Below the pieces are notes generated by a model. It was not told the origin of the DNA. It saw nothing but the letters and a program-made list of their open reading frames with translations, and ran no database searches. A stretch of DNA of 64,000 nt from Torpedo marmorata. Lineage: Eukaryota. Both the position numbers and the translations under genes were made by a program. This document shows positions 2,637 through 56,830 of this stretch, in pieces. Position 1 is the stretch's first letter; every line of letters starts with the position of its first letter. The DNA lies in NCBI GenBank assembly GCA_977017645.1, contig OZ360229.1:24304001-24368000 (forward strand), given 5' to 3'.

Positions 2637-3025
2637 TATAAGTAACGGTGACTTCGCTCCACCAATAGTCACCTGGAGGCTAAGTGTGGTCCTTGCTTTT
2701 GACGCGTTTTATTTAATTTACTGACAAAGTCCAATATGTTCAAAAACCTTTATTTTCACACATGACTTGCAGTAATCTTCAATGACTTTAATATAAACAG
2801 TTCTTGTAAACGATGTATGATAAGTTCCTTTAAATTATTCCTTAAACAATTCCAAAATGATATGAAACACTGTAGATGATGTTAAAGTTATAGAAACATT
2901 ATAAAACGGTATAAAACGATATAAAACGGTCAATAAAGATGTGGAGACCAGACTCACCCCCCATACATCTCTATCCTTTCTTTGTTCTCTCTCTCTAATG
3001 GTTCTGCGCATGCTCCAACGCGCAT

Positions 3026-3108
3026 ACTACAATTCCCAGCCTCCCACGCGCACTATGACGTCACTCTATACTGCGCATGCGCCCGTCGGCACTCCCGCGC
3101 ATGCGCAT
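3026..3108. promoter_or_regulatory. LTR promoter motif cluster: ZNF143/THAP11-type site, CRE and NRF1 sites (also at +5600 in the 5' LTR)
   Basis: ACTACAATTCCCAGC at 3026-3040, TGACGTCA at 3056-3063, TGCGCATGCGC at 3072-3082 and GCGCATGCGCA at about 3097-3107. Confidence 0.6.
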
Positions 3109-3123
3109 ATCAAAGAACGGGCC

Positions 3124-3303
3124 GACGACGGCCCACAGAACAACGCAAGCGCTCCAAGGCCCGACGTGGCCTCGGAGCGCGCTGAGGACGGCCCAGTGAA
3201 CAACGCGAGCGCTCAATGGCCCGACGTGGCCCAGGAGCGCTCCGAGGACGGCCCACCGAACCACGCGAGCGCTCCAAGGCCCGACGAGACATCGGAGCGC
3301 CGC
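3124..3303. repeat. About 3 copies of a 60-bp CpG-rich tandem repeat inside the LTR (also 8724-8903)
   Basis: GAsGACGGCCCA...AAC.ACGC.AGCGCTC.A.GGCCCGACG...GGAGCGC recurs with period 60. Confidence 0.9.
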
Positions 3304-3542
3304 AACAACGGTAAGTTAACGAGCCTACGGCTCTTACACCGGCCCCTAATTATTATAATTAGACGTAATGTCTTGAATAATAATTACACTATAAATAATA
3401 ATAACCATAACATTCAAAACAATACAAATCTTCTTTCTTCCTTCTTCATAAATCTAGAGTTTACCATAACTCTGATTCAACAAAAGTCTGTAACCTGTGA
3501 AATGTACAACAACAAATAAAGTCAGTTTACATTTATCAAAGT

Positions 3543-3720
3543 TCCTCTGTCTCCAACAAAAGGCAGACCTTATTAATAGGTCTGTTTAGAAAACCAGTCT
3601 TAGTTTTAATTCGCACTTGACGCACAAGTCCTCTTTGTCTTGAAAAGTCTCAATAATCTTTTCCAAGTAACCAGGAATTTCTTGAAGTTGAACCATCCAT
3701 AACAATCACAATGTCTCTTT
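3543..3720 (-). pseudogene. Frameshifted BEL/Pao integrase C-terminal tail (DUF5641-like)
   Basis: Minus strand reads DIVIVMDGSTSRNSWLLGK / IIETFQDK / GLVRQVRIKTKTGFLNRPINKVCLLLETEE across frameshifts, the typical end of Pao pol. Confidence 0.85.
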
Positions 3721-3755
3721 AAAGTTCTTCCATCTTCACAATCCGAGTCAAAACG

Positions 3756-6700
3756 TTAACCAGTAAACCTCAAATCCTCCTCAGATAAAATAGATACAGT
3801 TTTTCTTTTGAATTTAACACAAGGCACTTCTTCAGCACGTCGTTTCACTTTATTCCTTTCTTCAGTATTCCACTTCTCATGTGAAGAATTTAAACTCTTA
3901 GAATTAGAATTTGAATATTTATCTGATTCTTTCGATTTTAAACAGGTCTGTTTAACCACTCTGGTTTCTAATGCTCTTTCCTGCAATTCTAAATCCAATT
4001 TCGCAATTTTCAATTCAGTCTCAGCTCCTTCCGAGAAATTAATAATTTGATCTGAAGTCAAAATATCATGCGATACATTGATAGTTCCATTGTCAATCCT
4101 GTTGCGGCATACTTGAAATTTTTTAATTTCTTCGTCTTGCTTGTTACATTTCTGCAATGCAATCTCACATTCTTTCTGCATTGTTAATTGTTGAACATTC
4201 AATTTACATTCTTGATTGGTTTTTAAAGTCAACTGTTTTGTGTTATTAACCAATAACTTGATCTCTTTCAAAACATTAATCTCTTCCTCCAACCTTTTAC
4301 ATTTTGATAATGCTGAATCTCTTTCCTCAATAATTGTATTCATTTCTTCAGCAGTTATTCTTTTCTTCCGCTTTCTGACTTTGCGAGTTTTACTTACAAT
4401 TAAATCCTTTTGTTTACTGTTTTCTTGATTATCTAATATTTCCAATTCCCCTTTCAACATTTTGTTCTCTGGATTCAATTGCATTGAATTATCATTCACA
4501 TTATTCTTTATTCCATCAGCACAATTTTCTGTGTTTTCCAGTTTTACATCACATTGTAATATTTCTTCATTAGCTTTGTCTGTTGTAATCTCTGAACTAC
4601 AAAATCTACATTCAGATTTGTTTTCAGTCACTTGTTTTATTCCTGTATCTGATTCAATTACACATGAATGATCAATAGTATTATTTGCAACATCTTCTAA
4701 TACTTCACTTTCATCCATTTCTGATGAAATTAATTTCTTTAATGTTGTTTTAAATACCACTGATTTATTTTTACATTGATCTGTTTTCTTTTCTTCATAA
4801 GTGATTTTCTTATTCACGGTTTTTTGCTCTTCTCTTAACTCTTCAAATTTCTCAACTGAAATTTTATTAACATTTATTGCTACCTGTTCCTGAGTAATAT
4901 CATTATTTCTTTCCATTGGTCCATTGATTGCCCAACCAAGTATGGTTCTAATAGCGTAAGGTCCATTCCTTTTACTTTCTATTACTTCTTTTGGTACCAA
5001 AACCTTTGGCACATCTGAACCAATCAGCATTTCTATTTCAGAATTAATTTCAGGTAAATAAACCTTCCACAGATAAGCTAAATGATGGATATCACTTTGA
5101 TGAGGAATATTTCCTTCGTTCACAGGCATAGTCTTCTGAGTATATACACTTGGAAGATCACAAAACTTTTTGTCATCCAATCCAGCAACCTCTAAGCCTG
5201 AAACAATGTTAGTTTCAACAACCTTTTCTTGTCCCATGGTCTTTAACATAATTCTTGATCTTTTTCCTTGAATATTAAGTTTATTCATTAGTCCTTCCGT
5301 GCAAAAAGATGCAGTGCTGCCTGGGTCTAAAAATGCATATGTTTTTACTATTACATCCCCTTTCTTGGCCTTGACTTGTACAGGCACTATTGAAAGTTTG
5401 CAGTTATTCACCCCGGCCCCAGTAAGACCACTTGTCTGAACCGAGGTTATAACATTATTTTCTGTTGTTTCCTTTGTTTCTGTTTGCTCCTTTTCCAATT
5501 CCTTGTTTCTGTTATGGATATGCAAAATTCTAGGATGTTTCAAATTGCATATGTTACAATTAATTCGCTTCTCGCAGTTTTTACTGATGTGCCCTTTACA
5601 CAAACAGCTAAAACATATTCCATTTTCCTTTAAGAAAGCGATCCTTTCCTTATGTTCCTTCCTTTCCAATTGTAAACACATTTCCAAAGCATGTCCACCT
5701 TTACAGAACAAACAACTCTTTTCATTAGGCAAACTTTCCTTTTCCTTATTTACTTTGTCCTTTTCTTTATTTATAACTTGCACATTAGTAGCAAAAGTAC
5801 TCCTTTTCACTTTCGGACTAGACTGTGAATTAGACTTCCTTACATCTTTGCTCATTGAATTATCTCTGATATTTCCATATAGTGGATCTGTTTCAACATA
5901 CACTTGTCGTTCAAGAAAATTTACCAAATCCTTTAAAGTAATTCTTCGACCATAATTTACTTGTAAATCACAAGCCAAATTTCTCCATCTATCCCATACC
6001 TTGTAAGGTAATTTTTCTAAAATGATTCGCATATTACTATGCACATCAAGCTCACGAATACCATCGATTTCTTCCATAGCATTACAACATCCTCTTAAAA
6101 ACAAAGTATATTCTTGCAAAGCCTTTACATCATTTTGTTTTATTGATGTCCATTTAAGAGCTTTATCCATATAAGCTAAAGCAATTCGATGTTTGTTGCC
6201 AAAATATTGTTCCAATAAATCCTTAGCTTTATCTAATCCTCTTCCTGAAGACATTTGATTACAACTTTTAACCAGTTCCTTTGGATGTCCCTTTGTAAAC
6301 ATTTCCAAATAATAAAGACATTCATCACGATCTTGGCATTTATCTTCAATATTGCGTTTGAAAGATCTCATAAATGATTGATATTGAAGTGGATCACCAT
6401 CAAAAGTTTGTATCTCTTTCTTGGGTAAAGAAGAGAGAGACTGTAACTGAAACAATGACGCAGCAATTTCATTTTGTCTTTCCTTGGATTTCAATACATT
6501 ACTCTGTTCACTGTCTCGTGTTGTATGCAATGTATCTGGAAACCTTACTGGTGTAGTTTCTTCCATATTTCTGATGCTTGACTCATATAACAAAGAATTT
6601 ACTTCGTTCGACCGGACCCAAGCCGCAGCTTTGCTTTCAGATGTTACTAATGGTACATGTGACTCGATACCAATATGCTCGTGAAAGGTTTGTCCTTGTA

Positions 6701-7832
6701 TATGTAAGTTTTGTATCCTTGGTTCTAAAATATCTATCCTTTTGGTTGGTTTCTTTTCCTGTGACTCCTTTTTTAAATATGACCTTTTATTATCAGACAA
6801 TTTAGATGATTTACTGCTAGCACCAGATACCATTGAGCCTTCTATTGCTTTCTTTTCTGCCTTGGCAATAGCAATGTTTGCTTCCAGCTCCTGCTGTTCT
6901 TTTCTCTTCCTTAGCTGCTCCTTCTCTTGTCTTAGCTGCTCCTTTAGCTGTTTCTCATTTTGTCTTAGCTGCTCCTCCTCTTGTCTTAGCTGCTCCTTTA
7001 GCTGTTTCTCATTTTGTCTTAGCTGCTCCTCCTCTTGTCTTAGCTGCTCCTTTAGCTGCTCCTCCTTTTGTCTTAGCTGCTCCTTTAGCTGCTCCTCCTT
7101 TTGTCTTAGCTGCTCCTTTAGCTGCTCCTCCTTTTGTCTTAGCTGCTCCTTTAGCTGCTCCTCCTTTTGTCTTAGCTGCTCCTTTAGCTGCTCCTCCTTT
7201 TGTCTTAGCTGCTCCTTTAGCTGCTCCTCCTTTTGTCTTAGCTGCTCCTCCTCTTCTTCCAAAATATATTTATCCTTAAGCGTTTTTTGTTGTGCAATAA
7301 GAGCGGCCAATTTAACATCAATCCTTGTACGTGACGATGCAGAACTTGAAGTACGAGAAACTCTGGAGCTTGAACCAGAACTTCTTTTGCTTCTCCTGCT
7401 TTCAGCATTTGAGACACTGTCACTTGCTTGTATTTCGTCCTGCATTTCATATGTTGTCTTCATACTTACCTCTTTATCCAATTCGAATTGTATATCCTTT
7501 GCATCTTCAACCAATTCAATTTCTTCCTCATTTGGTGACACAATTTCAGCCATTTCCAAGTTATCTTCTTGTTCAAATAATGAAGCTGCCTCTTCATCCT
7601 TTGCCAGCTTCAATCTTTCAATAAGAACCTTTTTATTTCCACTTATGTCCTTATTCAGTCGCTTCAATTCTTCTTTAATATCCGAAACCTTCATGTCTTC
7701 AATACGTTGGTCCTCAACAGCAACATCAGCGGTTGCTGCGTCAGCTGCTGATAAATCAGTAGCTGCTGTATCAGTGGCTGCTGCGGCCATTTTACTCGTC
7801 TTGTTCCTCTTTCCTTCAAGCATACACAACAC
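3756..7832 (-). CDS. Chimeric polyprotein: SAP domain, hendecad coiled coil, Pao Gag (DUF1759-like, three Zn knuckles), Pao aspartic protease, MIPOL1-like coiled coil; no RT/RH/IN
   Basis: Uninterrupted 1358-aa frame; the probable start is the strong-Kozak AAAATGGCC at 7790. Motifs: LPKKEIQTFDGDPLQY, CLFCKGGHALEMC, CFSCLCKGHISKNC, CNICNLKHPRILH, TYAFLDPGSTASF, RTILGWAINGP. These are followed by RITAEEMNTIIEERDSALSKCKRLEEE. Confidence 0.9.
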   Translation of the reverse strand: MLCMLEGKRNKTSKMAAAATDTAATDLSAADAATADVAVEDQRIEDMKVSDIKEELKRLNKDISGNKKVLIERLKLAKDEEAASLFEQEDNLEMAEIVSPNEEEIELVEDAKDIQFELDKEVSMKTTYEMQDEIQASDSVSNAESRRSKRSSGSSSRVSRTSSSASSRTRIDVKLAALIAQQKTLKDKYILEEEEEQLRQKEEQLKEQLRQKEEQLKEQLRQKEEQLKEQLRQKEEQLKEQLRQKEEQLKEQLRQKEEQLKEQLRQEEEQLRQNEKQLKEQLRQEEEQLRQNEKQLKEQLRQEKEQLRKRKEQQELEANIAIAKAEKKAIEGSMVSGASSKSSKLSDNKRSYLKKESQEKKPTKRIDILEPRIQNLHIQGQTFHEHIGIESHVPLVTSESKAAAWVRSNEVNSLLYESSIRNMEETTPVRFPDTLHTTRDSEQSNVLKSKERQNEIAASLFQLQSLSSLPKKEIQTFDGDPLQYQSFMRSFKRNIEDKCQDRDECLYYLEMFTKGHPKELVKSCNQMSSGRGLDKAKDLLEQYFGNKHRIALAYMDKALKWTSIKQNDVKALQEYTLFLRGCCNAMEEIDGIRELDVHSNMRIILEKLPYKVWDRWRNLACDLQVNYGRRITLKDLVNFLERQVYVETDPLYGNIRDNSMSKDVRKSNSQSSPKVKRSTFATNVQVINKEKDKVNKEKESLPNEKSCLFCKGGHALEMCLQLERKEHKERIAFLKENGICFSCLCKGHISKNCEKRINCNICNLKHPRILHIHNRNKELEKEQTETKETTENNVITSVQTSGLTGAGVNNCKLSIVPVQVKAKKGDVIVKTYAFLDPGSTASFCTEGLMNKLNIQGKRSRIMLKTMGQEKVVETNIVSGLEVAGLDDKKFCDLPSVYTQKTMPVNEGNIPHQSDIHHLAYLWKVYLPEINSEIEMLIGSDVPKVLVPKEVIESKRNGPYAIRTILGWAINGPMERNNDITQEQVAINVNKISVEKFEELREEQKTVNKKITYEEKKTDQCKNKSVVFKTTLKKLISSEMDESEVLEDVANNTIDHSCVIESDTGIKQVTENKSECRFCSSEITTDKANEEILQCDVKLENTENCADGIKNNVNDNSMQLNPENKMLKGELEILDNQENSKQKDLIVSKTRKVRKRKKRITAEEMNTIIEERDSALSKCKRLEEEINVLKEIKLLVNNTKQLTLKTNQECKLNVQQLTMQKECEIALQKCNKQDEEIKKFQVCRNRIDNGTINVSHDILTSDQIINFSEGAETELKIAKLDLELQERALETRVVKQTCLKSKESDKYSNSNSKSLNSSHEKWNTEERNKVKRRAEEVPCVKFKRKTVSILSEEDLRFTG
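6905..7252 (-). repeat. In-frame 33-bp tandem repeat encoding (EQLRQKEEQLK)n
   Basis: TTGTCTTAGCTGCTCCTTTAGCTGCTCCTCCTT repeated, with 21-bp variant units; the frame is preserved throughout. Confidence 0.95.
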
Positions 7833-8236
7833 TAGTCAAACAACGGTCCCCAATGGACCAGCGGCAGCAATTCCAATCTGTGTTCTTACTTGCTAAAGAT
7901 ACACAGAAGGAGTCCACAGACTTATGCCTACCACTTCTAATGACTGTAATGTGCTGCAATCCTTAAACGAGTTTCAACCACAACATCCGTCACTAATATC
8001 ACTGATATTCCAAAAATAGTTTCTCCAACGTATTTATAGGACACTTTTCTATAAGATTTGAAGCTTTAAATCACTCTCTGGCTGTTATTCATGGCAGATG
8101 GATGTAGATTACAAACTGCCCCCAACTCGAGGCATCTCCAAAATGGCCACCAATTTATATCAGTCCAAAGCACAGAGAGTTTTTTCTATCTTCTTTCCTT
8201 CAAACTTCTGTTCCAAACAGCCAGCCCTTTATTGAC

Positions 8237-8938
8237 TATAAGTAACGGTGACTTCGCTCCACCAATAGTCACCTGGAGGCTAAGTGTGGTCCTTGCTTTT
8301 GACGCGTTTTATTTAATTTACTGACAAAGTCCAATATGTTCAAAAACCTTTATTTTCACACATGACTTGCAGTAATCTTCAATGACTTTAATATAAACAG
8401 TTCTTGTAAACGATGTATGATAAGTTCCTTTAAATTATTCCTTAAACAATTCCAAAATGATATGAAACACTGTAGATGATGTTAAAGTTATAGAAACATT
8501 ATAAAACGGTATAAAACGATATAAAACGGTCAATAAAGATGTGGAGACCAGACTCACCCCCCATACATCTCTATCCTTTCTTTGTTCTCTCTCTCTAATG
8601 GTTCTGCGCATGCTCCAACGCGCATACTACAATTCCCAGCCTCCCACGCGCACTATGACGTCACTCTATACTGCGCATGCGCCCGTCGGCACTCCCGCGC
8701 ATGCGCATATCAAAGAACGGGCCGACGACGGCCCACAGAACAACGCAAGCGCTCCAAGGCCCGACGTGGCCTCGGAGCGCGCTGAGGACGGCCCAGTGAA
8801 CAACGCGAGCGCTCAATGGCCCGACGTGGCCCAGGAGCGCTCCGAGGACGGCCCACCGAACCACGCGAGCGCTCCAAGGCCCGACGAGACATCGGAGCGC
8901 CGCAACAACGGTAAGTTAACGAGCCTACGGCTCTTACA
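8237..8938 (-). repeat. 5' LTR of the BEL/Pao element (702 bp)
   Basis: Matches 2637-3338 and is flanked by the TSD GATGG at 8939-8943. Confidence 0.95.
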
Positions 8939-9276
8939 GATGGAATATATTCTGAGTTAGTTGTGTCAACCCCTCTTTACATATGTAGCCTGAAACTTGC
9001 TCTAGGTGTGATTTTACCAGGGTCCTCTTGGTTCTGGGAGACTGATGTGCTGTTAGGGTGCCCTCGATTAGCTTGTGCTCTTAATTGGTCAGTTCTCTGT
9101 TGTGAGGTACTCACTGAAGTGGCTGTAGTTTGAGGAAGCAGACTTGGATGAATTGGGGAAGAGTGTGCCTGAGAGCTGGAGGTTGCAGGAGACCTGATAT
9201 TCTTAATTCACTCATCTCAATCCTACCCAGATTATGTGAGCACCATTGTAGCCCCCAGATCCCCACTGAAGCTGGC

Positions 9277-17712: not shown

Positions 17713-20377
17713 ATTTTTATTTATTTTGTAAGGTGCTTTATATGAAGGTTTGCACTATGATGCTGCCGCAAAACAACAAATTTCGTGACATGCTCATGAC
17801 AATAAATTCTGAGTCTGAAAATTCTTTAAGAGAGAACTGAGGGGCAATGTTTCAATTAGAGTAGTTTTTAAAAAATTTTAAAAATATTTTATTTAAAATT
17901 TTTAATCACAAAATACATAAAATAGAATATAAAATTATCAAATTATTTATGACACATTTTCACCCCCCTCCCTCCCTCCCCTCCCCAACCCCCCCCACCC
18001 CCACTAATCTAATAAAAATATAATAAAAAGTAATAAAGAAAAAAGAAAGAAAGAAAAAGATAAAGTAAGGGGAATGCCATCTAGAAACTAATTCTATTAT
18101 GGAGGTCAAGTGTGCCAGTAGATCCGATATCCAGAGATCTTCAAATCCTTAAACCAACAGCTTTCATATATGGGCTCCAAATTTTTAAGAAAAAATGATA
18201 TTTATTACGTAAATTATAAGTAATTTTTTCAAGTGGTATACACGAACGAAGTTCTGCATGCCATCTTTCTAATCCTAAATCTAAATCAAATTTCTAAGTA
18301 ATAGCAATGCATTTTTTTGAAACAGCTAAAGCAATTCGCAAAAATTCTATTTGATACATATTTAATTTCATCTTAATGCTAAATTTTCTAATATCTCCAA
18401 ACAAAAATATCATAGGATCCATTGGGAATGTAATTTTAAATACTTTATCTAAATTTTTTTTAACTTTAAACCAAAAATCATAAACTTTTGGACAAAACCA
18501 TGTAGAATGTACAAAAGAACCTTCTTCTTTATTACATCTAAAACATAAACCTGAAAGTGTCGGATTAAATTTCTTTAATTTTTTAAGTGTTAAATATAGT
18601 TGATGAAAAAAATTATACTGTACTAATCTGTATCTAACATTAATAATCTTCGTCATACTAAATTTGCATAATTCTTTCCAATGATTTTCATCTATTCTTA
18701 CATTCAAATCTAATTCCCATTTTAATCTTGATTTATGTAATCCTATTTTAGGCAATTTCCTCTGAAACAATTTATACATTTGAGAAATAAATTTATTAAC
18801 ATCTCCATTAGTAACTAATAATTCTAATTCATTTTGTCTTGGTAGAATCAAAGCATAACCTAATTTCTCAATCAAAAAAGATCTAATTTGATAATAAGCA
18901 AAAAGTGTATTATCTGATATATTAAATTTATCTTTCATTCTTTGAAAAGTAATAAATTTCCCAGCTTCAAAACAATCTTTAATCTTTTTAATACCTTTTT
19001 GAAACTAAATTTTAAATAATTGATTATTAACAGTAAATGGAATAAGTCCATTTTGATATAAAGGCATCCTTGAAGAAATCAATCCTTTTCCACCTATTTC
19101 CTTATCTGTCTTGTTACATATTTCTAACAAATGTTTAAAAATAGGCGAATTTTTTTTTTTGTTGATATTAATTTAGAATCCCATTTATAAATAATTTCTT
19201 CTTTGGAGTCATCACCTATATTATTTAATTCTATTTTAATCCAAGCAGGAGATTTAGTTGAATCAAAAAATTCATTAACAAATTTTAATTGAGCTGCTTT
19301 ATAATAATTTTGAAAATTAGGAAGTTGTAAGCCACCCATTTCATAATTCCAAGTTAATTTTTCCATACCTACTCTTGCTAACTTTCCTTTCCATAAAAAT
19401 TTCCTAATAATTGAATTTAAATCTTTAAAAATTTTTTGAGGAATTCCATAAGGAATTGATTGAAAAAGATATTGAATTCTTGGAAAAATATTCATTTTAA
19501 TACAGTTTACTCTTCCCATTAAAGTTATAGGTAAATCTTTCCAATTTTCTAAATCTTTCTTTATTTTCACAAATAATGGTAGATAATTTAATTTATATAA
19601 ATTAGCCAATTTTGTATCAGCCCTTACTCCTAAATATTTAATTCCTTCCCTTGCCCATTTAAATTGTGTAATTTCTTTACATCTACTATAATCCCCTTGT
19701 GATAATGCCATAATTTCACTTTTATCAGAATTAATTTTATATCCAGATATTTCCCCATATTCTCTCAATAAAATAGACAATTGTACTAAAGATGTAATAG
19801 ATTTTGTCATATATATCAATACATCATCTGCAAACAAACTAATTTTATGTTCTTCCATTCCAACTTTAATACCAACTATTTTAGGATCTTTTCTAACTAA
19901 TTCAGCCAAAGGTTCTATCGCCAAAATAAATAATGCTGGTGACAAAGGACATCCCTGTCTAGTAGATCAAGTCAAAAGAAATTTTGGAGAAATTTGTCCA
20001 TTTGTAACTACTTTAGCCGATGGTTCTTTATATATAGTTTTAATCCAATTAATAAATGTATTTCCAAAGCCAAATTTCTCCAGTACCTTAAATAAAAAAT
20101 TCCATTCTACTCTATCAAAAGCCTTTTCAGCGTCTAATGTTAAAACTAATGGTAAATCTTCCTTCTTTTTATGTAAATTAATTAAGCTAATCAATCTAGC
20201 TATATTATCTTTTGAATATCTATTTTTAATAAAACTAGCTTGATCTACATGAATTAAATCTGGTAAATAATTAGCCATTCTATTTGCTAAAATTTTTGCC
20301 ATTATCTTATAGTCTACATTTAATAATGAAATAGGTCTATAAGATTCAGTTTTCAATATATCTCTATCCTTCTTTGG
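17713..20377 (-). mobile_element. 5'-truncated fish-type L1 (ORF2 RT to C-terminal zinc knuckle, disrupted) with about 150 bp of extra 3' sequence
   Basis: SYRPISLLNVDYKI, LDAEKAFDRVEW, LFADDVLIY and CFRCNKEEGSFVHSTWFC, with stops and frameshifts. TSD TCAAGTGCTCATT at 17700-17712 and 20378-20390. Confidence 0.9.
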
Positions 20378-26322: not shown

Positions 26323-27283
26323 ATTTGTGGAACTCACTGAATAATCCATCATGGCATTTTGATCCTGCAGAGTTCATTCCCTTCGTTAACATACTCACCC
26401 ATACACAGGGTCCCTTATACAGTAAAACTCCTGGTATCTGGAATTCAATCAACTGGCAGCCTCAAGCAACTGGCAAAAAAATTGAGGTAAATAAATAAAT
26501 AAAAAATAAGATAAATAAGAATGAAATAATAGGTAAAAAATACGTAAGTTTAAAATTGTAAAAGTAAATGTTCTCTGAAGTAACACATAAACCTTTGGTG
26601 AAGATGGGAGCAAATATTCAGCCAGCGGAGTGCCTTGGTCGTGCTTTGCTCGTAGCAGCTGTTTGAATAAAGTTGTGTGAAACAGCAATGGCATCGCCCA
26701 GGATGAAGAGCTGCCGTTGGGATGACTCTTACTGCTTAGTAAGAATCACCCCAGTTAGAGGCTTTGTCTATAAACTTGGGGGAGGGGGAGTTAATTATCT
26801 ATAATGTTATTGTTCGCCTTTTGGGTGGCCCCGTGGAGGAGGAGGAACCTGCCGATGCAGTGACGGTTAAATGTTTTCAAAGAATGTTACTGAAAATAAA
26901 GTAAAATGCTTTAAGGTTTATATTGTAGCGGCCCGCGAGCTGATCGGCGACCCGCCGCACAAAATGGCGGTCGAACTCGGCGATCGCGCCAGGACCACAG
27001 GGACTAAACGGCCTTCTTGCAGCAGCTCCAGTCGACTGGCGGGAAACGACGAGCACCGGCGGGTAAACCGACCAATCAGTGGCCGGCCCGTCGGTGACGT
27101 CATCTCCGCCGGAAGAGGCGGGTCTCTGGGTCTGCTGGCCCTATATAAGGCAGAGCCAGAGCCCTAATAAACCAGACTCACTTATACTCACCTCGTTTGT
27201 GTGTGTGTGATTCTTCTCGACGCAGCCGCAGCACGCTACATTGGTGACCCCGATGGGTCTGAACGGTGTTTTCAGACCCAGCG

Positions 27284-27950
27284 ATGACGGACCAGGCAAG
27301 CATCCACGCGGTCGCCCTGAAGCTACCGACCTTCTGGACAACACAGCCACAGGTCTGGTTCAAGCAAGTCGAGGCTCAATTCCAGATCCGACAGATCTCC
27401 TCCAACGCCACTCGGTACTACTACGTGGTGAGCTCGCTGGATCAAGACACAGCGGCCAGAATCGTCGACTTCCTCCGGCACCCACCAGAGCAAGGGAAGT
27501 ATGAGGCCATGAAAGAGCTGTTGACCTGCACCTTCGGGCTCTCAAAGCGCGAGCGCGCAGCCCGATTGTTGCACATGGTCGGGTTGGGGGACAGGGCCCC
27601 ATCCGTCCTCATGGGCGAGATGTTAGCGCTCGCCGATGGCCATAAACCTTGCCTGATCTTCGAGCAGATATTCTTGGAGCTATTGCCAGAGGATATCCGA
27701 TTGCTGCTGGCTGACGAGGATTCAACGACCTAAGGAAGGTGGCAGCCCAGGCAGACGTGCTCTGGAAATCGAAGAGGCACTTTGACGTTGTGGTGGAGTA
27801 CATCGCCAAGCCCCGCATGCAGCGAGCGACAAGGCCGCCGGCCACACGCGACAGCCAAATGGACACTGCGGGTGAGCAGTGCTGTTTCTACCACCAGCGA
27901 TGGGGTGCGGAGGCCCGCTGATGCCGCCCACCCTGCGCGTTTCTGGGAAA
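27284..27950 (+). pseudogene. Gypsy gag, disrupted, with a CHCC motif
   Basis: ALKLPTFWTTQPQVWFKQVEAQF at the N-terminus. CFYHQRWGAEAR*CRPPC (Cx2Hx9Cx3C) at 27883-27936 contains a stop, and there is a frameshift near 27725. Confidence 0.85.
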
Positions 27951-30900
27951 TGCCACGGCCGGCCGTCGTTAATGGCTGTGGCAGTTGGCCAACGAGACAG
28001 CCTGCTCCACGTGTGGGATTCACTGTCAGGACGGCGGCTCTTGGTCGACACCGGAGCCGAAGTCAGCGTCCTCCCGCCCTCGGCACATGACATCCGCAAC
28101 AAGCGGCCAGGCCCGTCGTTGAGAGCAGCAAACTGCTCCACCATAAGGATGATCGACACGCGTACCGTGCCGCTCCGTTTCAGCGACAGCCGATTCACGT
28201 GGACTTTTACACTCGCCGCAGTGGAACAACCACTCCTGGGGGTGAATTTCCTCAGGGCATATTGCCTACTGGTGGATCTCAAAGGGCGAAGGCTGGTCCA
28301 CGCTAAGACCTTCCAGTCCTTTCCCCTGAGGAAAGCCGAGTTACCCGCCCCCAACCTCCATTCCGTCACCGCCGACCGCAATGAGTCCTCGTGAATCCTC
28401 GCCGGATTCCCATCTATCGCGGTACCACAGTTCACCTCCGCCGGGCCCAAACACGGGGTGCAACACCACATCCTTACCGAGGGCCCTCCCCTCCACGCTA
28501 GGGCATGCCACCTGCCCCCGAAAAGCTGAGCTTAGCCAAAGAGGAGTTCAGGAAGATGGAGGAACTGGGGATTGTGCACAGGTCCGACAACCCCTGGGCA
28601 TCCCCCCTACACATAGTGCCAAAAGCAGCAGGAGGGTGGAGACCGTGCAGGGACTTCTGACACCTGAATGAGGCAACCACGCCAGACCGATACCCCGTGC
28701 CCCACATACAGGATTTCACCGCAAACTTACAGGGAGCACGGGTCTTCTCCAAGGTTGACCTCATCAGATGCTACCACCAGATCCCGGTCCACCCCGAGGA
28801 CATAGCTAAAACCGCCATCATAACACCCTTTGGTTTGTTTGAGTTCCTAAGGATGCCCTTTGGGCTAAAAAACGTGGCTCAAACGTTCCAGAGGTCGATG
28901 GACAGGGTGGGCCGGCACCTCGATTTCGTATTCAGCTACCTCGATGACATACTGGTGGCTAGCCGCAACCGCGAAGAACATGCGACGCACATACGGCAGC
29001 TGTGCTCCCGCCTCAGAGACTTCAGCCTGACCATCATCCCGGCCAAGTGCCAGTTCGGGCTAGACACTATTGACTTCCTGGGCCACAGGATTAGCAAACA
29101 CGGGGTGACACTGCTACCTGAGAAGGAAGAGGCTGTCAGGTGCTTCAGCAAGCCACACATGGTGAAGGGCCTCCAGGAGTTCGCCGGTATGATCAACTTT
29201 TACCGCCGTTTCATACCGGCGGCAGCCCGCATCATGCGCCCGCTTATTCGCCTTGATGGCTGGCAAGAAGAAAGAGGTGGAGTGGGACAAGGAAGCATTG
29301 GAAGCGTTCCAGAGGGCCAAAGACGCCCTGGCCAATGCCACACTTCTGGTGCACCCGCGGACAGACGCCCCGACTGCCCTCACGACAGATGCCTCCAACA
29401 CAGTGGTTGCAGGGGTACTTGAGCAACAGGTGGATGGACAATGTCAGCCCTTAGCCTTCTTCAGCAGGCATCTGCGGTCACCCGAGCTCAAGTACAGTGC
29501 TTTCGACCGGGAACTGCTAGCTCTTTACCTAGCGGTACGACACTTCCGATACTTCCTAGAGGGCAGGCAGTTCACGATTTTCACCAATCACAAACCACTG
29601 ACCTTCGCCTTCAACAAGGTGTCGGACCCATGGTCGGCCAGTCAACAAAGGCACCTGTCCTATATATCCGAGTTCACCACGGATATTCAACATATCGCCG
29701 GAAAGACTAATGTGGTTGCTGATGCTTTATCACGCCCTACAATCCAGGCAAAACAGGCACTGTCCCAAGGGGTCAACTTCACAGCGTTGGCCCAAGCACA
29801 GCTGCAAGACCCTGAGATCCCCACGTACAGAACGGCGGTGACAGGATTTAAACTAGAAGACATCGCCATTGGGCCCGGCAGCCAGACTCTACTCTGCGAC
29901 ATGTCAACGGGTAAACCCGGCCCCGTCGTCCCCGCGGCATGGAGACTCCTAACGTTTGACACGGTGCATAACCTGGTGCACCCGTCGATTAAGACCATGG
30001 TCAGGATGGTAGCCAACAGGTTCGTGTGGCACGGTCTCCAGAAACAAGTCAGCCAGTGGGCAAGAACCTGCACACACTGCCAGACGTCTAAGGTACAGAC
30101 GCATGTCAAGGCGACCCCCCCCCCCCAAATCATTCGAGCCGGCACGACGGAGGTTCAGCCATGTCCACGTTGACATCGTTGGCCCCCTGCTGGTATCGAG
30201 AGGGGCGTGGTACCTACTGACAATGGTAGACCGCCTTACGAGGTGGCCGAAAGTGGTTCCGCTGGCAGAGACCTCAACGGGGACTTGTGCCAGAGCCCTC
30301 ATCGACACATGGGTGGCTTGATTCGGAGTCCCGGAACACCTGACTTCTGACAGGGGTGCGCAGTTCACTTCGGGATTCTGGACAACCATAGCTAACCTCT
30401 TGGGAACCCTGCTCCACCACACCACGGTTTACCACTCCCAGGCCAACGGACTGGTAGAGCGGTTCCACCGGTACCTGAAGGCAGCCCTGATGGCCCGCCT
30501 TAAAGGACCACGCTGGACAGACGAACTACCGTGGGTACTTCTGGGAATCCGAACGTCGCCCAAAGAGGACCTCGATACCTTGGCAGCGGAGTTGGTGTAC
30601 GGCGCACCCCTGGTTATCCCTGGCAAGTTCCTGGCCAGTGCCAGGGGCACAGATGACACACCGGCGGCTACCCTCAAAAGGCTCTGAGAGCGGCTGGGGA
30701 CACTGGCCCCATCACAAAACACACCGCACGGCCACCCGAAGACTCATGTGCCCAAGGACCTACTCAACTGCAGGTTTGTTTTTGTGCGACGAGGAGCACA
30801 TCGGCCGCCGCTGCAATGACCTTACGAGGGGCCCTACAAGGTGATCCAGCACAACGGATCAACATGTGTGCTGGACATCGGAGGCAAGGAAGAGACATTC

Positions 30901-31010
30901 ACAATAGACTGCCTTAAGCCAGCACACATCGACGCCAGTCAACCGGTCATCACACCAGCCCCACGCCGCAGAGGCAGGCCGCCGAAAGCACGGGACACCG
31001 CCACGATCGC
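27950..31010 (+). pseudogene. Gypsy pol (PR-RT-RNase H-IN) with multiple frameshifts and stops
   Basis: LVDTGAEVSV, RMPFGLKN, YLDDILV, TDAS, YSAFDRELLA, HPSIK...CTHC, QANGLVERFH and YEGPY. Confidence 0.9.
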
Positions 31011-32351
31011 CGATTCTGGTGGGGAGTCGTGTAGCGGCCCACGAGCCGATCAGCAACCTGCCGCACAAAATGGCGGTCGAACTCGGCGATCGCGCCAGGA
31101 CCACAGGGACTAAATAGCCTTCTTGCAGCAGCTCCAGTCGACCGGCGGGAAACGACGAGCACCGGCGGGAAAACCGACCAATCAGTGGCCGGCCCGTCGG
31201 TGACGTCATCTCTGCCGGAAGAGGCGGGTCTCCGGGTCTGCTTCTCGATGCAGCCGCAGCGCTACAACATGCAAGTGAAGTTTGTTCAGTGTGAGTACAG
31301 AATAGTATTTTTGTCTTTTAAACTGTTTATTCTTAATGCAGGTTTATTAGTTAGGCATTGTAAGAGTAAGTCTCAAGTAACTGGAAAAAACACTTATCCG
31401 GCATCTACCAATCCCCATAGATGCTGCATACCAGGGGGTTTTCTGTAATTGCATTTAATTGCCCATCCCTAATTGCCCTCAAAATTTGTGCAATTGTATT
31501 TGGCAGTCATCAGCCATCTGGGTTCTATGGCCAGGAATCCCCTCTTTTAAGTGTCTGCTCATTTCTCTTGACCTCTCCAATGAACTTTATTTTTGGACAA
31601 GATGTCAAATCGAGGCCCTGTTTGCTCCAATGATCATCTGGCACTACTTGTTAAAACCACGGGAACTTCTGTTATCCTGACTATTTTTTATCTGGAGACG
31701 AACAGATTTTAAATTGCATTTTAAAAAATCAACATCCGATTATTATTTGAGAGACCTTGAGTATGTTTAAAAAAAAGTCTCCCAAGTTCCTCACTCAGTA
31801 CTTTTGAGAGATCCCGAGGTTGTGCGATTTGCTGTTTAAATCCAAGTTCTTTCTGGTTTTCCTTTTAATTGAAGATTTCTTTAACTCCATCTTATTCACT
31901 ACTCACTCAATACCTCTACTATTTATTCTTTTGAGGCAATCCCAGCTCACTTTTAATATATCCTTGCTAACTTGCTGATCTGTTGAACATGGTTATTCTT
32001 TATTGTCTCATCATCATCTTGCCATGATTTCATTACCTTGTTCTTATTTTGTAATCTTTATGATATTTTTAAGTACTTTTGTCAAACCTGTAGGGCCAAA
32101 ATGAAGAACCCTTTAATTTAACTTGTTATCTGCGACATTCTGAGATTTGAAGCAGTTTCTCTTTTAATGGTAGATGTTAATCCTGTGTAATTTGCAATCC
32201 CAATGTTTAAAAATATCTAGTTGTTGGTCCAGAGTCTGACGTGCTGATTTATTTCCTTCTTTCTGTTCAATTAGTTCAGTCTCCTTCCTAATCTGTTTGA
32301 ACCCATGCTGGAGTCCTGATTTTTTGTAATAACTTTCCTTTCTGTTCGTTT

Positions 32352-33566
32352 TTCAAAATCAGAATTTATTGTCGTGAGCGTGTCACAAAATTTGTTGTTT
32401 TGCGGCAGCATTACAGGAGTAAAATTGCTATAAATTACATTTAAAAAAAATAAATGAATTAGTGCAAAAAGAAGAGAAAAATTAGGTAGTGTCTGTGGTT
32501 CATTGTTCATTCAGAAACCTGATGGACGAGGGGAAGAAGCTGTTTTTGTACCTTTGAGTCTTCAGACTCCTGTACCTCCTTCCGGATGGTAGCAGTGAGG
32601 GCATGGCCTGGGGGTGAGGGTCCTTGAGGATAGAGGCTGCTTTCTTGAGACACCGCCTCTTGTAAATGTCCTTAATGGAGTGAAGACTGATGCCCATGAT
32701 GGCGCTGGCAGAGTCTTTTCCTGTCCCGTGCATTGGCACCTCCGTACCAGACAGTGAAGCAACAAGTCAGAATGCTCTCTACTGTACACCTGTAGAAATT
32801 TGCAAGAGTCTTTGGTAACATACCAAACCTCCTCAAACTCCTCACAAGGTATAGCCACTGGCGAGCCTTCTTCATGGTGCCATCGACGTGGAGGCTCCAA
32901 GAAAGATCTTGAGAGATGTTGACACCCAGCAATTTGAAGTTCTTAATCCTTTCCACTGTCGACCCCTCGATGAGAACTGGTTTGTGTTCTCCTGATTTCC
33001 CCCTCCTGAAGTATACAATAAGTTCCTTAGTTTTGCTAACTTTGAGTGCAAGTTTGTTGTTGTGACACCATTCATCCAGCTGACCTATCTCACTCCTGTA
33101 CGCTTCCTCATTGCCTTCTGTGATTCTGCCGACAACCGCGGTGTCCTCGTCAAATTTGTAGATGACATTTGAATTGTGCCTAGCCACAGAGTCATGAGTG
33201 TAGAACATGTAGAGCATGCATCCTTGAGGTGCGCCTGTGTTGATTGTCAGTGAGGAGGACATGTTGTTTCCGATTCATACTGACTGTGGTCTTCTGATGA
33301 GGAAGTCAAGGATCCAGTTCCAGAAGGAGGTGCAGAGGCCCAGGCTTTGAAGCTTGCTGACCAGTACTGAGGGTATGATTAAGTTGAAAGCCGAGCTGTA
33401 GTCAATGAAGAGTAGCTTGATGTACATGTTGCTGTTTTTCAGGTGATCCAGGGCTGAGTGGAGAGCCAGTGAGATTGCATCTGCTGTGGAGAGATTATAG
33501 CAGTAGGCAAATTGTAGTGGGTCCAGGTCTTAGGTACGAATTAATTCTGGCCATGACCAACCTCTC
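32352..33566 (-). mobile_element. Rex1/Babar-like LINE 3' fragment (RT, decayed)
   Basis: INTGAPQGC, YKFDEDTAVVGRI (degenerate FADD) and FYRCTVESILT..WYG, with a 3' tail at 32352. Confidence 0.85.
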
Positions 33567-46727: not shown

Positions 46728-48727
46728 CAGAATCAGAATTTATTGTCATGAACATCAAGTCCAGTCAAGTCAAGTCACCTTTATTTGTCGTTCATTACCA
46801 TATACACAGTAAGACGAGATAGCGTTTCTCCAGGACCATGAGCAAATGTACATAAATATCATAATACAATAGAAAAACTATAACATGCTAATACACATAT
46901 ATATCTAAAAATTGAGGAGCCTGATGGCTTGGGGGGAAAAACTGTTGCACAATCTGGACGTATGAGCCCGAATGCTTCGGTACCTCCTTCCAGATGGCAA
47001 AAGGGAAAAAAGTTTACCAAAGGGGTGTGAGAAGTCCTTCACAATGTTATTAGCCTTCCTCATGCATTGTGTGTTGTAGATGTCCGTCATGGTGGGAAGA
47101 GAGACACCAATATTTTTTCCGCTGACCCCACTATCCTCTGCAGGGTCTTTCGGTCCGAAATGGTACAGTTTCCAAACCAAGCGGTGATGCAATTTCTCAG
47201 AATACTCTCAATACATCCCCTGTAGAATGTAGTAAGGATAGAGGGTGGAAGATGAACTTTCCTCAGCCTTCGCAGGAAGTAAAAGCGCTGCTGGGCTTTC
47301 TTGGCTATGGAACTGGTGTTGAGGGACCAGGTGAGATTCTCCGCCAAGTGCACTCCAAGAAACTTGGTACTCTTTACGACCTCAATGGTAGAGCCGTCCA
47401 TGGTCAATGGAGAATGATCCCCCCAGGCCCTCCTGAAGTCGACAACCAACTCTTTTGTTTTATTTACATTCAGATGCAGGTTGTTGGCTCCGCACCATTC
47501 CATTAGCGACTGCACCTCATCTCTGTATGCTCACTCATCGTTCTTGCTGATAAGGCCCACCACGGTTGTATCATCAGCAAACTTTATGATGTGATTCGAG
47601 CTGTGTTTTGCTGCACAGTCATGAGTCAGCAGAGTGAACAGCAATGGACTAAGCACACAGCCTTGGGGAGCCCCCGTGCTCAATGTAATGACCTTAGAAG
47701 TGCTGTTTCCAATCCGGACTGCCTGAGGTCTTCCCGTCAGGAAGTCTAGAATCCAATTACAGAGGATGTTATTTAGGCCCAGGCCGCTCAACCTCCCTAT
47801 CAGGTACTGAGGTATGATCGTGTTGAATGCTGAGCTGAAATCAATAAACAGCATTCGAACATACGCGTCCTTATTTTCCAGGTGGGTGAGGGCTAGATGG
47901 AGGGTGGTAATGATGGCATCATCTGTGGAGCGGTTTGATCTATATGCGAACTGCAGGGGGTCCAGTGAGGGGGGCAGCAGAAGCTTGATGTGCCCCATGA
48001 CGAGCCTCTCGAAGCACTTCATGACAGTAGATGTGAGTGCGACAGGGCGGTAGTCATTGAGGCAGGACACCATCGACTTCTTCGGCACGGAGACGATGGA
48101 AGCGGCTTTGAAGCACGTTGGAACCAAGGCACTGCTCAGGGAGATGTTAAAGATGTCGGTGAGAACATCTGCCAGCTGGGCCGCACATCCCCTGAGCACT
48201 CTGTCGGGAATGTTATCTGGACCAGCAGCTTTCCGTGGGTTAACCTTGCTTAACACTCTCCTCACGTCGGCCACTGTAAAACATGTCACAAAATTAGTTG
48301 TTTTGCAGCAGCACTACAGTACAAATATTGCTATAAATTACATTTAAAAATAAATAAATAGTGCAAGAAAATGGGAGAAAGTGAGGTAGTGTCTGTGGTT
48401 CATTGTTCATTCAGAAATCTGATGCCAGAGGGGAAGGAGCTGTCCTTGTGCCACTGAGTGCTCGTCTTCAGGCTCCTGTACCATATTCCTGATGGTAGCA
48501 GAGTGAAGAGGGCATGGCCTGGGTGGTGGGGGTCCTTGAGGATAGAGGCTGCTTTCTAAAGGCACCACCTCTTGTAAATGTCATTGATGGAGTGAAGTCT
48601 GGTGCCTGTGATGTCACTGGCTGAGTTAACAACTCTTTGGAGTTTTTTCCTGTCCTGTGCATTGGCACCCCCATACCAAATAGTAATGCAACCAGTCAGA
48701 ATGCTCTCCACAGTACATCTGGAGAAA
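46728..48727 (-). mobile_element. Outer Rex1/Babar-like 3' fragment (46728-46755 plus 48281-48727)
   Basis: TCAGAATCAGAATTTATTGTCATGAACAT resumes at AACATGTCACAAAATT..., matching the uninterrupted copies at 14858 and 32352. Confidence 0.75.
46756..48280 (-). mobile_element. Rex1/Babar-like LINE (RT, 5'-truncated) nested in the tail of another Rex-like element
   Basis: [46 protein letters not shown] and [17 protein letters not shown] is duplicated at 46751-46755 and 48281-48285. Confidence 0.88.
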
Positions 48728-55029: not shown

Positions 55030-56830
55030 AGGGTGATGGTGGAGGGTTGTTTCACAGACTGGAGGCCTGTGACAACATTAATAAGTGCTTGGTCCACAAT
55101 TGTGTATCTTTTATATGAATAATCTGGAAGAGAATGTAGATGGCATGGTGAATAAATTTGCCAATGACACTAACATTGGTGGCACAGTGGACAATGAGGA
55201 AGGTTATCCAATATTTTTTTTTATTTTTATTTTTTAAAAAATATTTTATTTAAAAATTTTAAATCACAAAATACATAAAATAATATATAAAATTATCAAA
55301 ATACATGTGATACATTTTCACCCCCCTCCCTCCCTCCCCTCCCTAACCCTCCTGCCCCTACTAATTACTAAAATAAAAAAGAAAAGAAAGAAAGAAAGAA
55401 AAAGATAGAGTAAGGAGAATGTCAATCTAAAAAAGAACAACTATAAGCTGATTTTATTGTGGAAGATAGGTTTGCCAGTCAGATCTGATATCCAGAGATC
55501 TTCAGATCCTTAAACCAACAGTTTTTATATATGGGCTCCATATTTTCAAAAAGAAATGATATTTATTACGTAAATTATAAGTAATTTTTTCAAGTGGTAT
55601 ACATGAACGAAGTTCTGCATGCCATCTTTCTAACCCTAAATCTACATCAGATTTCCAAGTAATAGCAATGCATTTCTAAGAAACAGCTAAAGCAATTCGC
55701 AAAAATTCTATTTGATACATATTTAATTTCATCTTAATACTAATTCTTTTAATATCTCCAAACAAAAATATCATAGGGTCCATTGGAAGTGTAATACTCA
55801 ATACTTTATCTAACATTTTTTTAACTTTCAACCAAAAATCATATATCTTTGGACAAAACCATGTAGAATGTACAAAAGAACCTTCCTCTCTATTACATCT
55901 AAAACATAAACCTGATAATGTCGAATTAAATTTCTTTAATTTTTTAGGTGTTAAATATAATTGATGAAAGAAATTATATTGTACTAATCTATATCTAACG
56001 TTATAATAATCTTCATCATACTTAGTTTACATAATTCTTTCCAATGTTTCCAAGGTTATCCAATATTACCAAATCTTGATCAACTGAGTCAGTGGGCCAA
56101 GGAATGGTCGAGGTTGGAGTTTAATTTGGATAAGTGTGTGGTGTCAGTTAAATTGTGAATAGTACATCCCTGGATGGAGCAGAAATGACCAGGAGTACAT
56201 TCCCTGAAAGTGGCGACATGGGTAGACAGCGTGGTGAAGATATTTGGCACACTTGCCTTCATCGCTCAGGGTATTGAGTATAGGAGTTGGGATGTACATG
56301 TTATAGCTGTACTAGATGTTGGGAGGCCACATTTGGAATACTGAGAGCAGTTCTGGTTGTTGAACTGGAAGGGGTGGAAAAAGGATTTTTTTTTTAGTTA
56401 ATTACAGGGACTGGTGGGATTGAGTTGTAAAGAAGGTCTGGAGATGCTAGGACATTTTCTCTGGAGCATAATAAGCTTGTAGGAATGTGCAAAATCATGA
56501 GGGACATAGATGAGGTGAATAGTTGGTCTTTTCTCCAGAGTAGGAGAGTCAAAAGCAAGAGTGAATCAGTTTGAGGTGAAGGAAGAAGGTTTTAAAAGGG
56601 ACCTGAGGAGCAACCTTTTCAAAGACAGTGGTTGTAATATTGGACAAACTCCCCGAGGAAGTCATTAAGACTGGTACAAATATGACATCTAAGAGAACTT
56701 TGGATAGGTGAAGGTTTACAAGGATATGGGCGAAATACAGGCAAATAGGATTAGTTTAGATGGGCAAAGGTTGGCTTGGATGAGTTCGGGCGGAGGGCCT
56801 GTTTCTGTACTCTATAGCTCCGATTCTAAT
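55030..56830 (+). mobile_element. Old CR1-like LINE interrupted by an L1
   Basis: AAATTTGCCAATGACAC (degenerate FADD), a GGCCACATTTGGAATACTG RPHLEY-like motif and a CR1 3' stem-loop near 56790. Confidence 0.65.
55216..56051 (-). mobile_element. 5'-truncated L1, same family as 17865-20377
   Basis: Homologous to 17865-18690. 16-bp TSD AAGGTTATCCAATATT at 55200-55215 and 56052-56067. Confidence 0.9.

Follow-up and report, generated by a model that had tools for sequence, protein, structure and literature searches.

How does a retrotransposon come to carry a SAP domain, a known fold for binding double-stranded DNA (dsDNA), at the front of its Gag protein, from where might that domain have been taken, and what might it do there? 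These questions are raised by a 64,000-nucleotide stretch of DNA from Torpedo marmorata (assembly GCA_977017645.1, contig OZ360229.1, positions 24,304,001 to 24,368,000 of the forward strand), referred to below as the window, in which a BEL/Pao element with long terminal repeats (LTRs) occupies 6302 bp of the minus strand (2637-8938). The element is a young, non-autonomous member of BEL/Pao with an intact reading frame, the SAP domain at its N-terminus is real, and it is well supported that this domain was acquired and that the basic N-terminal domain native to the group was replaced. The fuller account, for which a probability of roughly 45% seems appropriate, is that the element belongs to a helper-dependent family that would have captured the domain from the mRNA of a SAP protein, SAFB or SLTM being the likeliest at about even odds, and whose Gag would use it as a tether to chromatin.

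The SAP domain spans residues 28-67 of the encoded protein (7590-7709, minus strand), with the Pfam core at residues 30-61 (7608-7703). As a preliminary description of this DNA had proposed, it fits the SAP consensus: in an 80-residue fragment, Pfam SAP (PF02037) gives residues 30-61 a score of 39.3 bits (E 4.6e-10), and in the whole protein of 1344 residues, where no other Pfam family is matched, the score is 33.2 bits, the curated cut-off being 23.9 bits. A hidden Markov model (HMM) of 91 other SAP domains, from which the query was excluded, gives the element 53 bits and the next-best segment of the six-frame translated window 6.9 bits. The conserved SAP positions in the element are V35, L42, G51, K53, L56, R59 and L60, and across the core columns (V, L, L, G, K, L, R, L) seven of eight residues are identical, one leucine having become isoleucine. 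An alignment-guided AlphaFold model, which leans on 14 SAP homologues, adopts the expected helix-loop-helix with a short N-terminal helix (model helices H16-25 and H34-54; predicted local distance difference test, pLDDT, 80), and a single-sequence prediction returns one long helix and is uninformative. The modelled fold matches the SAP domains of PIAS1, E1B-AP5 and Hcc-1 with Z scores of 6.2-6.8, these three together with those of MKL1 and THO1 with 5.2-6.8, and SAP structures overall with 5.1-6.8; since two unrelated chains score 7.0, the fold search agrees with the identification and is not decisive alone. In a viral structure library the top matches are again mostly SAP proteins, and iridoviruses of fish and amphibians supply some of the high-ranking folds (32-40% identity, E 0.03-0.3).

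That the domain was acquired follows from comparison with the relatives of the element. A search with residues 440-1000 yields 281 of these, the best 120 of which (P0003-P0122) were examined; they are 42-60% identical to the element, the nearest reaching 60% across Gag-protease, teleosts account for nearly all of the named ones, and Pao peptidase, DUF1759 or DUF5641 domains are present in most. The preliminary description had named SAP domains widespread in related BEL/Pao or Gypsy Gags as the outcome that would count against a capture, and for BEL/Pao this is not what is seen: none of the 120 Pao relatives, a sample with Gypsy Gags outside it, has a precomputed SAP domain, and the SAP HMM gives no relative more than 2.4 bits. 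What the relatives possess at this position is a conserved basic Gag opening of about 130 residues, an HMM of which matches 95 of the 120, a count that is partly circular as the model was built from 59 of the same sequences. The other 25, inspected by eye, start downstream of the native domain or have an aberrant start. In the window the same HMM has no match (best E 3.3). In three relatives the native domain carries a charge of +5 to +8 in its first 50 residues, and in the three that were scanned Pfam has no name for it; it is a candidate matrix-like domain. The conserved opening also replaces the earlier expectation of a PHD finger, or of no recognisable domain, at the start of Pao Gags. PHD fingers are absent from the precomputed domains of the 120 relatives, and the available portions of PMC3118150 and PMC11117352 make no mention of one in a Pao Gag.

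The element itself nests among these relatives. A Gag-protease tree that combines it with 48 of the 120 (the top 30 plus every fifth) places it in a clade of eight rows with full support (Shimodaira-Hasegawa-like approximate likelihood ratio test, SH-aLRT, 100), where the native domain is present in five neighbours and the other two are N-terminally truncated; measured from the base of the clade, its branch is 0.49 long, against 0.18-0.37 for the neighbours. From about residue 82 the linker of the element resembles the native linker of the close relative P0005, with 11 of 2000 shuffles scoring as well, and against five other relatives 90-1131 of 2000 shuffles are equally good. As the linker is Pao-like from there on, the junction is put near residues 68-82, such that the foreign piece comprises between residues 1-68 and 1-82. 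No close family member with a SAP N-terminus emerged from the word-based or representative searches.

The intact frame that opens with this foreign piece starts at an ATG at 7790-7788 (minus strand), residue 67 ending at 7590, and the start context, with A at -3 and G at +4, bears out the strong Kozak sequence reported earlier. Another in-frame ATG, 33 nt upstream (7823), has a weak context, and three further ones are found higher in the leader, which thus holds four ATGs in its 446 nt (7791-8236). The protein begins with an alanine-rich leader peptide (residues 1-27; 7710-7790), encoded by a degenerate short DNA repeat, with 12 alanines in the first 25 residues of Gag; in the relatives alanine averages 8% and reaches at most 32%. 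As evidence of homology to SAFB or SLTM this peptide was rejected as weak, given its origin in a degenerate repeat.

The element that bears this Gag is bounded by a 5' LTR (8237-8938) and a 3' LTR (2637-3338), each of 702 bp on the minus strand, that are 100% identical and flanked on both sides by the target-site duplication GATGG (right copy 8939-8943, left copy 2632-2636), from which a very recent insertion follows. The identical LTRs and intact duplication also led to the rejection of a domesticated host gene. The 5' LTR, which ends TGT...ATA, carries a CpG-rich 60-bp tandem repeat (family D2). On the element strand the LTR ends at 8237 and 2637 read ATA, not ACA, a single mismatch in the terminal inverted repeat despite the clean 5-bp duplication. 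The 60-bp repeats, at 8655-8911 and 3055-3311, adjoin the palindromes GCGCATGCGC and TGACGTCA, which are taken here to be like the binding sites of NRF1 and the cAMP response element (CRE). A polypurine-tract-like stretch lies just 5' of the 3' LTR (3339-3347). BEL/Pao elements are expected to have such a tract and a primer-binding site for tRNA-Arg or tRNA-Gly; the leader at 7791-8236 lacks both a TGG immediately downstream of the 5' LTR and any relic of the native Pao N-terminal domain. Scans for tRNAs and Rfam families give no match. In size the element agrees with BEL/Pao, for which LTRs of 0.2-1.2 kb and genomes of 4.2-10 kb are given (PMC8742986). It also possesses the triple Cys-His box, the hallmark of Pao, and the LLDxG/LIG protease motifs, as described for these elements (PMC554778).

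The coding part of the element is a single intact open reading frame (ORF) of 1344 codons (3756-7790, minus strand), which reads SAP-Gag-protease-cargo. After the SAP domain come an acidic linker (residues 68-115; 7446-7589), a native Pao Gag segment with the landmark DSVSN (residues 116-177; 7260-7445) and a 33-bp tandem repeat encoding a coiled coil of EQLRQK type (6903-7259), followed by the Gag core, which aligns with the DUF1759 region of relatives (5973-6404), the triple Cys-His box (residues 693-757; 5520-5714) and the aspartic protease region (4824-5510), with FLDPG at residue 820 and LIGSD at 922. The 33-bp array is near-homogeneous and lengthens the Gag coiled coil by about 120 residues with the frame kept, and relative P0013 is similarly expanded. 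The repeat expands a native Pao motif, on which ground its derivation from the glutamate- and arginine-rich (ER-rich) region of SAFB was rejected. Homology to Pao stops at residue 989. Beyond it the element has neither reverse transcriptase (RT), RNase H nor a working integrase, and there remains only a decayed C-terminal integrase (DUF5641) remnant of 51 codons (3563-3715, minus strand), out of the ORF frame, interrupted by stops and 55-63% identical to four relatives. The element has thus retained Gag and protease and is non-autonomous; neither a helper nor a second copy is found within the 64-kb window.

What, then, was the donor of the SAP domain? Word-based searches with the SAP region match none of 212 candidates at E 0.001 (proteins of 739-2352 residues) and none of 112 at E 10 (105-2000 residues), and an atlas search with residues 1-110 gives no usable match. 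An exhaustive search of representative sequences returns 47 SAP proteins, none above 57 bits, and the best domain of 43 of them (four being left out) was compared with the element over 41 columns. Thirteen rows, presumed to be SAFB/SLTM-like in part from their register with the published SAFB2 residues S31, V35, R45, K53 and S54, have 19-22 of 41 residues in common with the element (46-54%). Two rows are labelled MRTF-like on the basis of RPEL repeats and MKL1 matches, and are presumably of invertebrate type. Human MKL1 (17/39 identical) and E1B-AP5 (14/34) are further off than the SAFB/SLTM-like rows, which score best among the hits read as vertebrate. Several residues of the element are of SAFB/SLTM type (D48, V55, A63 and E67, with an A-x-x-E-E tail after helix 2), D48 and V55 occurring in about a third of 92 other SAP domains too. 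R29, V35 and K53 of the element share their numbering with Arg29, Val35 and Lys53 of SAFB2, a match that is weak since leaders among the hits range in length from about 11 to 40 residues. The domain is N-terminal in the element, as it is in SAFB and SLTM (PMC10901741), whereas the two MRTF-like hits carry it internally, at positions 177 and 334. In a toy simulation of drift, the observed scores are matched by 16 of 40,000 descendants of SAFB/SLTM, by none of MRTF-like and by two of other donors. The GC content of the SAP segment, 0.35, is like that of the A-rich element, which indicates that any capture is old.

A number of observations weigh against SAFB or SLTM. Identity is highest with the two MRTF-like rows (23/41), one unrelated row reaches 22/41 and the remainder at most 20/41, so the earlier statement that the domain is especially close to SAFB and SLTM goes too far. 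In a tree of the 41 columns the element is unplaced, outside the 13-row SAFB/SLTM group (support 94/57), and the nearest rows by path are an unrelated SAP row and the MRTF-like pair. All 13 SAFB/SLTM rows have L-R-V-x-D-L and R45 where the element has M-K-V-S-D-I and L45, and residues 31-36, EDMKVS, are of MRTF or generic type. The GGxP segment that follows the domain in SAFB/SLTM is not detected after it here (profile score -0.1, with 64 of 397 scored shuffles as high). The simulation is crude, its counts are small and it leaves unsampled donors out of account, and the donor comparison as a whole covers SAP proteins from representative sequences and the PDB. Of the traits that could mark an MRTF origin, EDMKVS is common to both, and the P of the L-P-V-S-G loop and the Q are absent from the element. 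Approximately unbiased (AU) tests reject neither grouping (p 0.336 for SAFB/SLTM, 0.141 for MRTF-like). At the level of sequence the domain is a site-by-site mosaic of MRTF/generic and SAFB/SLTM types. Of the proposed capture from a host gene, therefore, the acquisition stands, with 0/120 Pao relatives carrying the domain, and the assignment to SAFB or SLTM is not established, as the suggested phylogeny leaves the domain unplaced and AU leaves the grouping unrejected. Judged on the greater distance of human MKL1 and E1B-AP5, on position and register, and on the simulation, SAFB/SLTM would be the single most likely donor, at about even odds, and such an origin is plausible, if unproven.

The alternative closest to this account is that the element acquired a working DNA-binding module from some other SAP source, be it another host gene such as MRTF/myocardin, a member of the hnRNPU family or ACIN1, a mobile element such as Zisupton, a Penelope-like element or a Gypsy Gag with SAP, or a DNA virus of fish. 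SAP-led Gypsy Gags may occur in arthropods. The unplaced position in the tree and the unrejected MRTF-like grouping leave room for such a source, as do the best PDB match of the domain, which is MKL1 (no entry named SAFB or SLTM being among the PDB matches), the iridovirus proteins found by fold, and the SAP domains already known in Zisupton and a Chlamys Penelope-like element (PMC8557442). Yet no LTR-element domain is among the Pfam families given for the 47 representative proteins, one of which, with several SAP domains, has an exo/endo-phosphatase domain, and the two word-based searches without a match speak, weakly, in the same direction. MRTF domains are moreover internal and human MKL1 comparatively distant, and the simulation gave fewer matching descendants for MRTF-like and other donors than for SAFB/SLTM. 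An origin outside SAFB/SLTM is considered a lesser possibility, though one to be taken seriously.

As to function, the preferred account is of a non-autonomous BEL/Pao family that would encode its own SAP-Gag-protease and borrow RT and integrase from an autonomous helper. Its native basic Gag N-terminal domain would have been replaced long ago by the start of the coding sequence of a SAP-protein mRNA, by way of template switching during reverse transcription, and the domain would since have drifted without losing its fold or the principal lysine that contacts DNA. Many Gag N-termini together could then bind dsDNA avidly and with weak sequence selectivity, and in doing so might tether Gag or the particle to chromatin, either for access to integration sites or for collecting the element's own nascent RNA. 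A dsDNA tether on Gag would be the most likely role, and is the most economical one in that multiple copies of Gag would add avidity. In the available text of PMC9958909, the SAFB2 SAP domain binds dsDNA only, with micromolar affinity and a slight AT preference, K53 and S54 are decisive for binding, and the R45A change unfolds the domain. The element keeps the equivalent of K53 and seven of the eight core residues, against 14-16 of 33 at other columns (Fisher p 0.03-0.05), and its ORF has stayed open across 1344 codons on the long branch of 0.49, which is counted toward retained function. Set against a binding role are the positions of SAFB2 S31 and R45, which are E and L in the element (L at the latter position is common elsewhere, in 39% of 92 other SAP domains), a net charge of +3 against +5 or +6, and a bias in the core-conservation test, as a SAP domain without its core would have escaped detection. 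The insertion site likewise offers no sign, at n=1, of a preference for AT-rich DNA, its GC of 0.48 lying at the 87th percentile of the window.

Some of these same features would be expected were the domain tolerated as a passenger: the 5' end of a host mRNA, kept for its strong in-frame start codon while the SAP fold decays. About half of its residues differ from every hit, the S31 and R45 equivalents have changed and the charge has fallen, its base composition resembles that of the A-rich element, and the core test reaches only p 0.03-0.05 and is biased. A decaying passenger would not so readily have kept seven of eight core residues including K53, nor score so far above the Pfam cut-off after long divergence; its leader is also still of a length like that of SAFB2, and its arrival cost the element a conserved native domain. 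This explanation is considered unlikely. Less likely still, and by some way, is the decoy against host silencing that had been suggested, in which the domain, as a decoy or a dominant-negative, would push host SAFB proteins aside and in this way ease the silencing of transposons. SAFB proteins do suppress L1 and, in mouse cells, the RNAs of LTR/endogenous retrovirus (ERV) elements with A-biased ORFs (PMC10901741), and the ORF of the element is A-rich; SAP peptides of SAF-A have been described as dominant-negative (PMC8042391), and the SAFB2 SAP domain may dimerise. The difficulty is that SAFB repression works through binding of transposon RNA (PMC10901741), whereas the SAFB2 SAP domain bound none of the RNA tested (PMC9958909) and the element has no RNA recognition motif (RRM). 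A mimic would also be expected to stay host-like, but here the SAFB/SLTM family signature has been lost. The chromatin tether remains the preferred role.

The other end of Gag-protease raises a related question. In place of RT, RNase H and integrase, the ORF continues in frame into 355 residues of non-Pao cargo (residues 990-1344; 3756-4823, minus strand), for which no match is found in the best 120 of 281 relatives or in Pfam, and only vimentin, at E 0.08, in the PDB. Residues from about 1143 to 1225 (4116-4364, minus strand) may resemble vertebrate MIPOL1, a likeness for which a preprint gives circumstantial support. According to the accessible text of a preprint on 244 vertebrate genomes (10.64898/2026.06.26.734816), that preprint, MIPOL1 is, together with SUDS3, SDF2L1, SLU7 and ZNF276, among the most retrocopied genes of cartilaginous fishes; its main text, so far as available, does not mention SAFB or SLTM. 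Should the resemblance to MIPOL1 be right, the element family may be a vehicle of retrocopies, and host-mRNA capture would gain an independent example. A wider scenario, which is tentative and on balance doubtful, is of a non-autonomous Pao family that would still be mobile and would probably belong to cartilaginous fishes, with two in-frame captures of host mRNA under selection, the 5' end of SAFB/SLTM for the Gag N-terminus and a coiled-coil piece of MIPOL1 for pol, in which the domain of a suppressor would serve as chromatin tether and the family would account for the high number of MIPOL1 retrocopies.

Elsewhere in the window lies a second LTR element, of Gypsy type and GC-rich (about 26924-31270, plus strand), with terminal repeats 95% identical and matches to DUF7041, protease, RT, RNase H and an integrase zinc finger in separate frames. 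A broken long interspersed nuclear element (LINE) at 18297-20377 (minus strand; GC 0.25) has RT and zf-RVT matches, with related ends near 55238, 62848 and 63947, and further LINE fragments at 47090-48313 and 32675-33274 (both minus strand) have matches of RT and ALKBH8_N type.

Gene capture by LTR elements is already known; less common is a captured domain that is in frame, apparently conserved and part of a still-mobile element. The natural exchange of a Gag N-terminus for a known dsDNA-binding fold suggests a role for that position in BEL/Pao, and makes Gag-based targeting to chromatin testable in this group. If SAFB or SLTM was indeed the donor, a transposon would have taken part of its own suppressor, and if the cargo is from MIPOL1, the retrocopy counts of cartilaginous fishes may in part represent copies of such an element and not independent retrocopies.

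How does this arrangement compare with known systems? Plant TR-GAG elements and the deletion types of mouse intracisternal A particles (IAPs) also use their own Gag with a borrowed Pol, in superfamilies other than BEL/Pao, and to our knowledge none carries a SAP domain; in murine leukaemia virus (MLV), p12 is a short Gag-borne motif for tethering to chromatin. No report of a SAP domain in the Gag of an LTR element was found among the papers listed from a largely open-access literature, Repbase and GyDB not being covered, nor in the available text of PMC8321522, PMC11117352 and PMC7175516, and the particle biology of BEL/Pao is in general little known (PMC8742986). With its BEL/Pao relatives (Belpaoviridae, P0003-P0122) the element has in common the LTRs, Gag core, triple Cys-His box, protease motifs and the remnant of an integrase tail, but it is without RT, RNase H and a working integrase, has SAP in place of the native domain and carries 355 residues of cargo after the protease. 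With the SAP domains of SAFB1, SAFB2 and SLTM it shares the N-terminal position, the register of R29, V35 and K53, the D-x-x-G-x-K-x-V-L loop and the A-x-x-E-E tail, while lacking L-R, S31, R45, the GGxP tail, the RRM and the ER-rich region. The tether of foamy virus Gag, a chromatin-binding signal (PMC7828637, available part), is a short motif, whereas the tether proposed here by analogy would be a folded domain. Zisupton and the Penelope-like element Chlamys-1_pPol likewise have SAP as an accessory module of a transposon protein (PMC8557442, in part), there in a DNA-transposon protein or inside RT and here at the N-terminus of an LTR-element Gag. A further parallel is LTR-mediated retroposition (Tan et al. 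2016; PMC5131818), in which, from the portion available, pieces of mRNA replace internal ORFs by template switching and give multi-gene chimeras, Pao BATUMI and BEL18_AG being the Pao/BEL precedents. Common to both are foreign sequence between intact LTRs, possibly from several donors, and further rounds as non-autonomous elements; what sets the Torpedo element apart is that its foreign pieces lie in frame at both ends of Gag-protease, are old and have strongly diverged.

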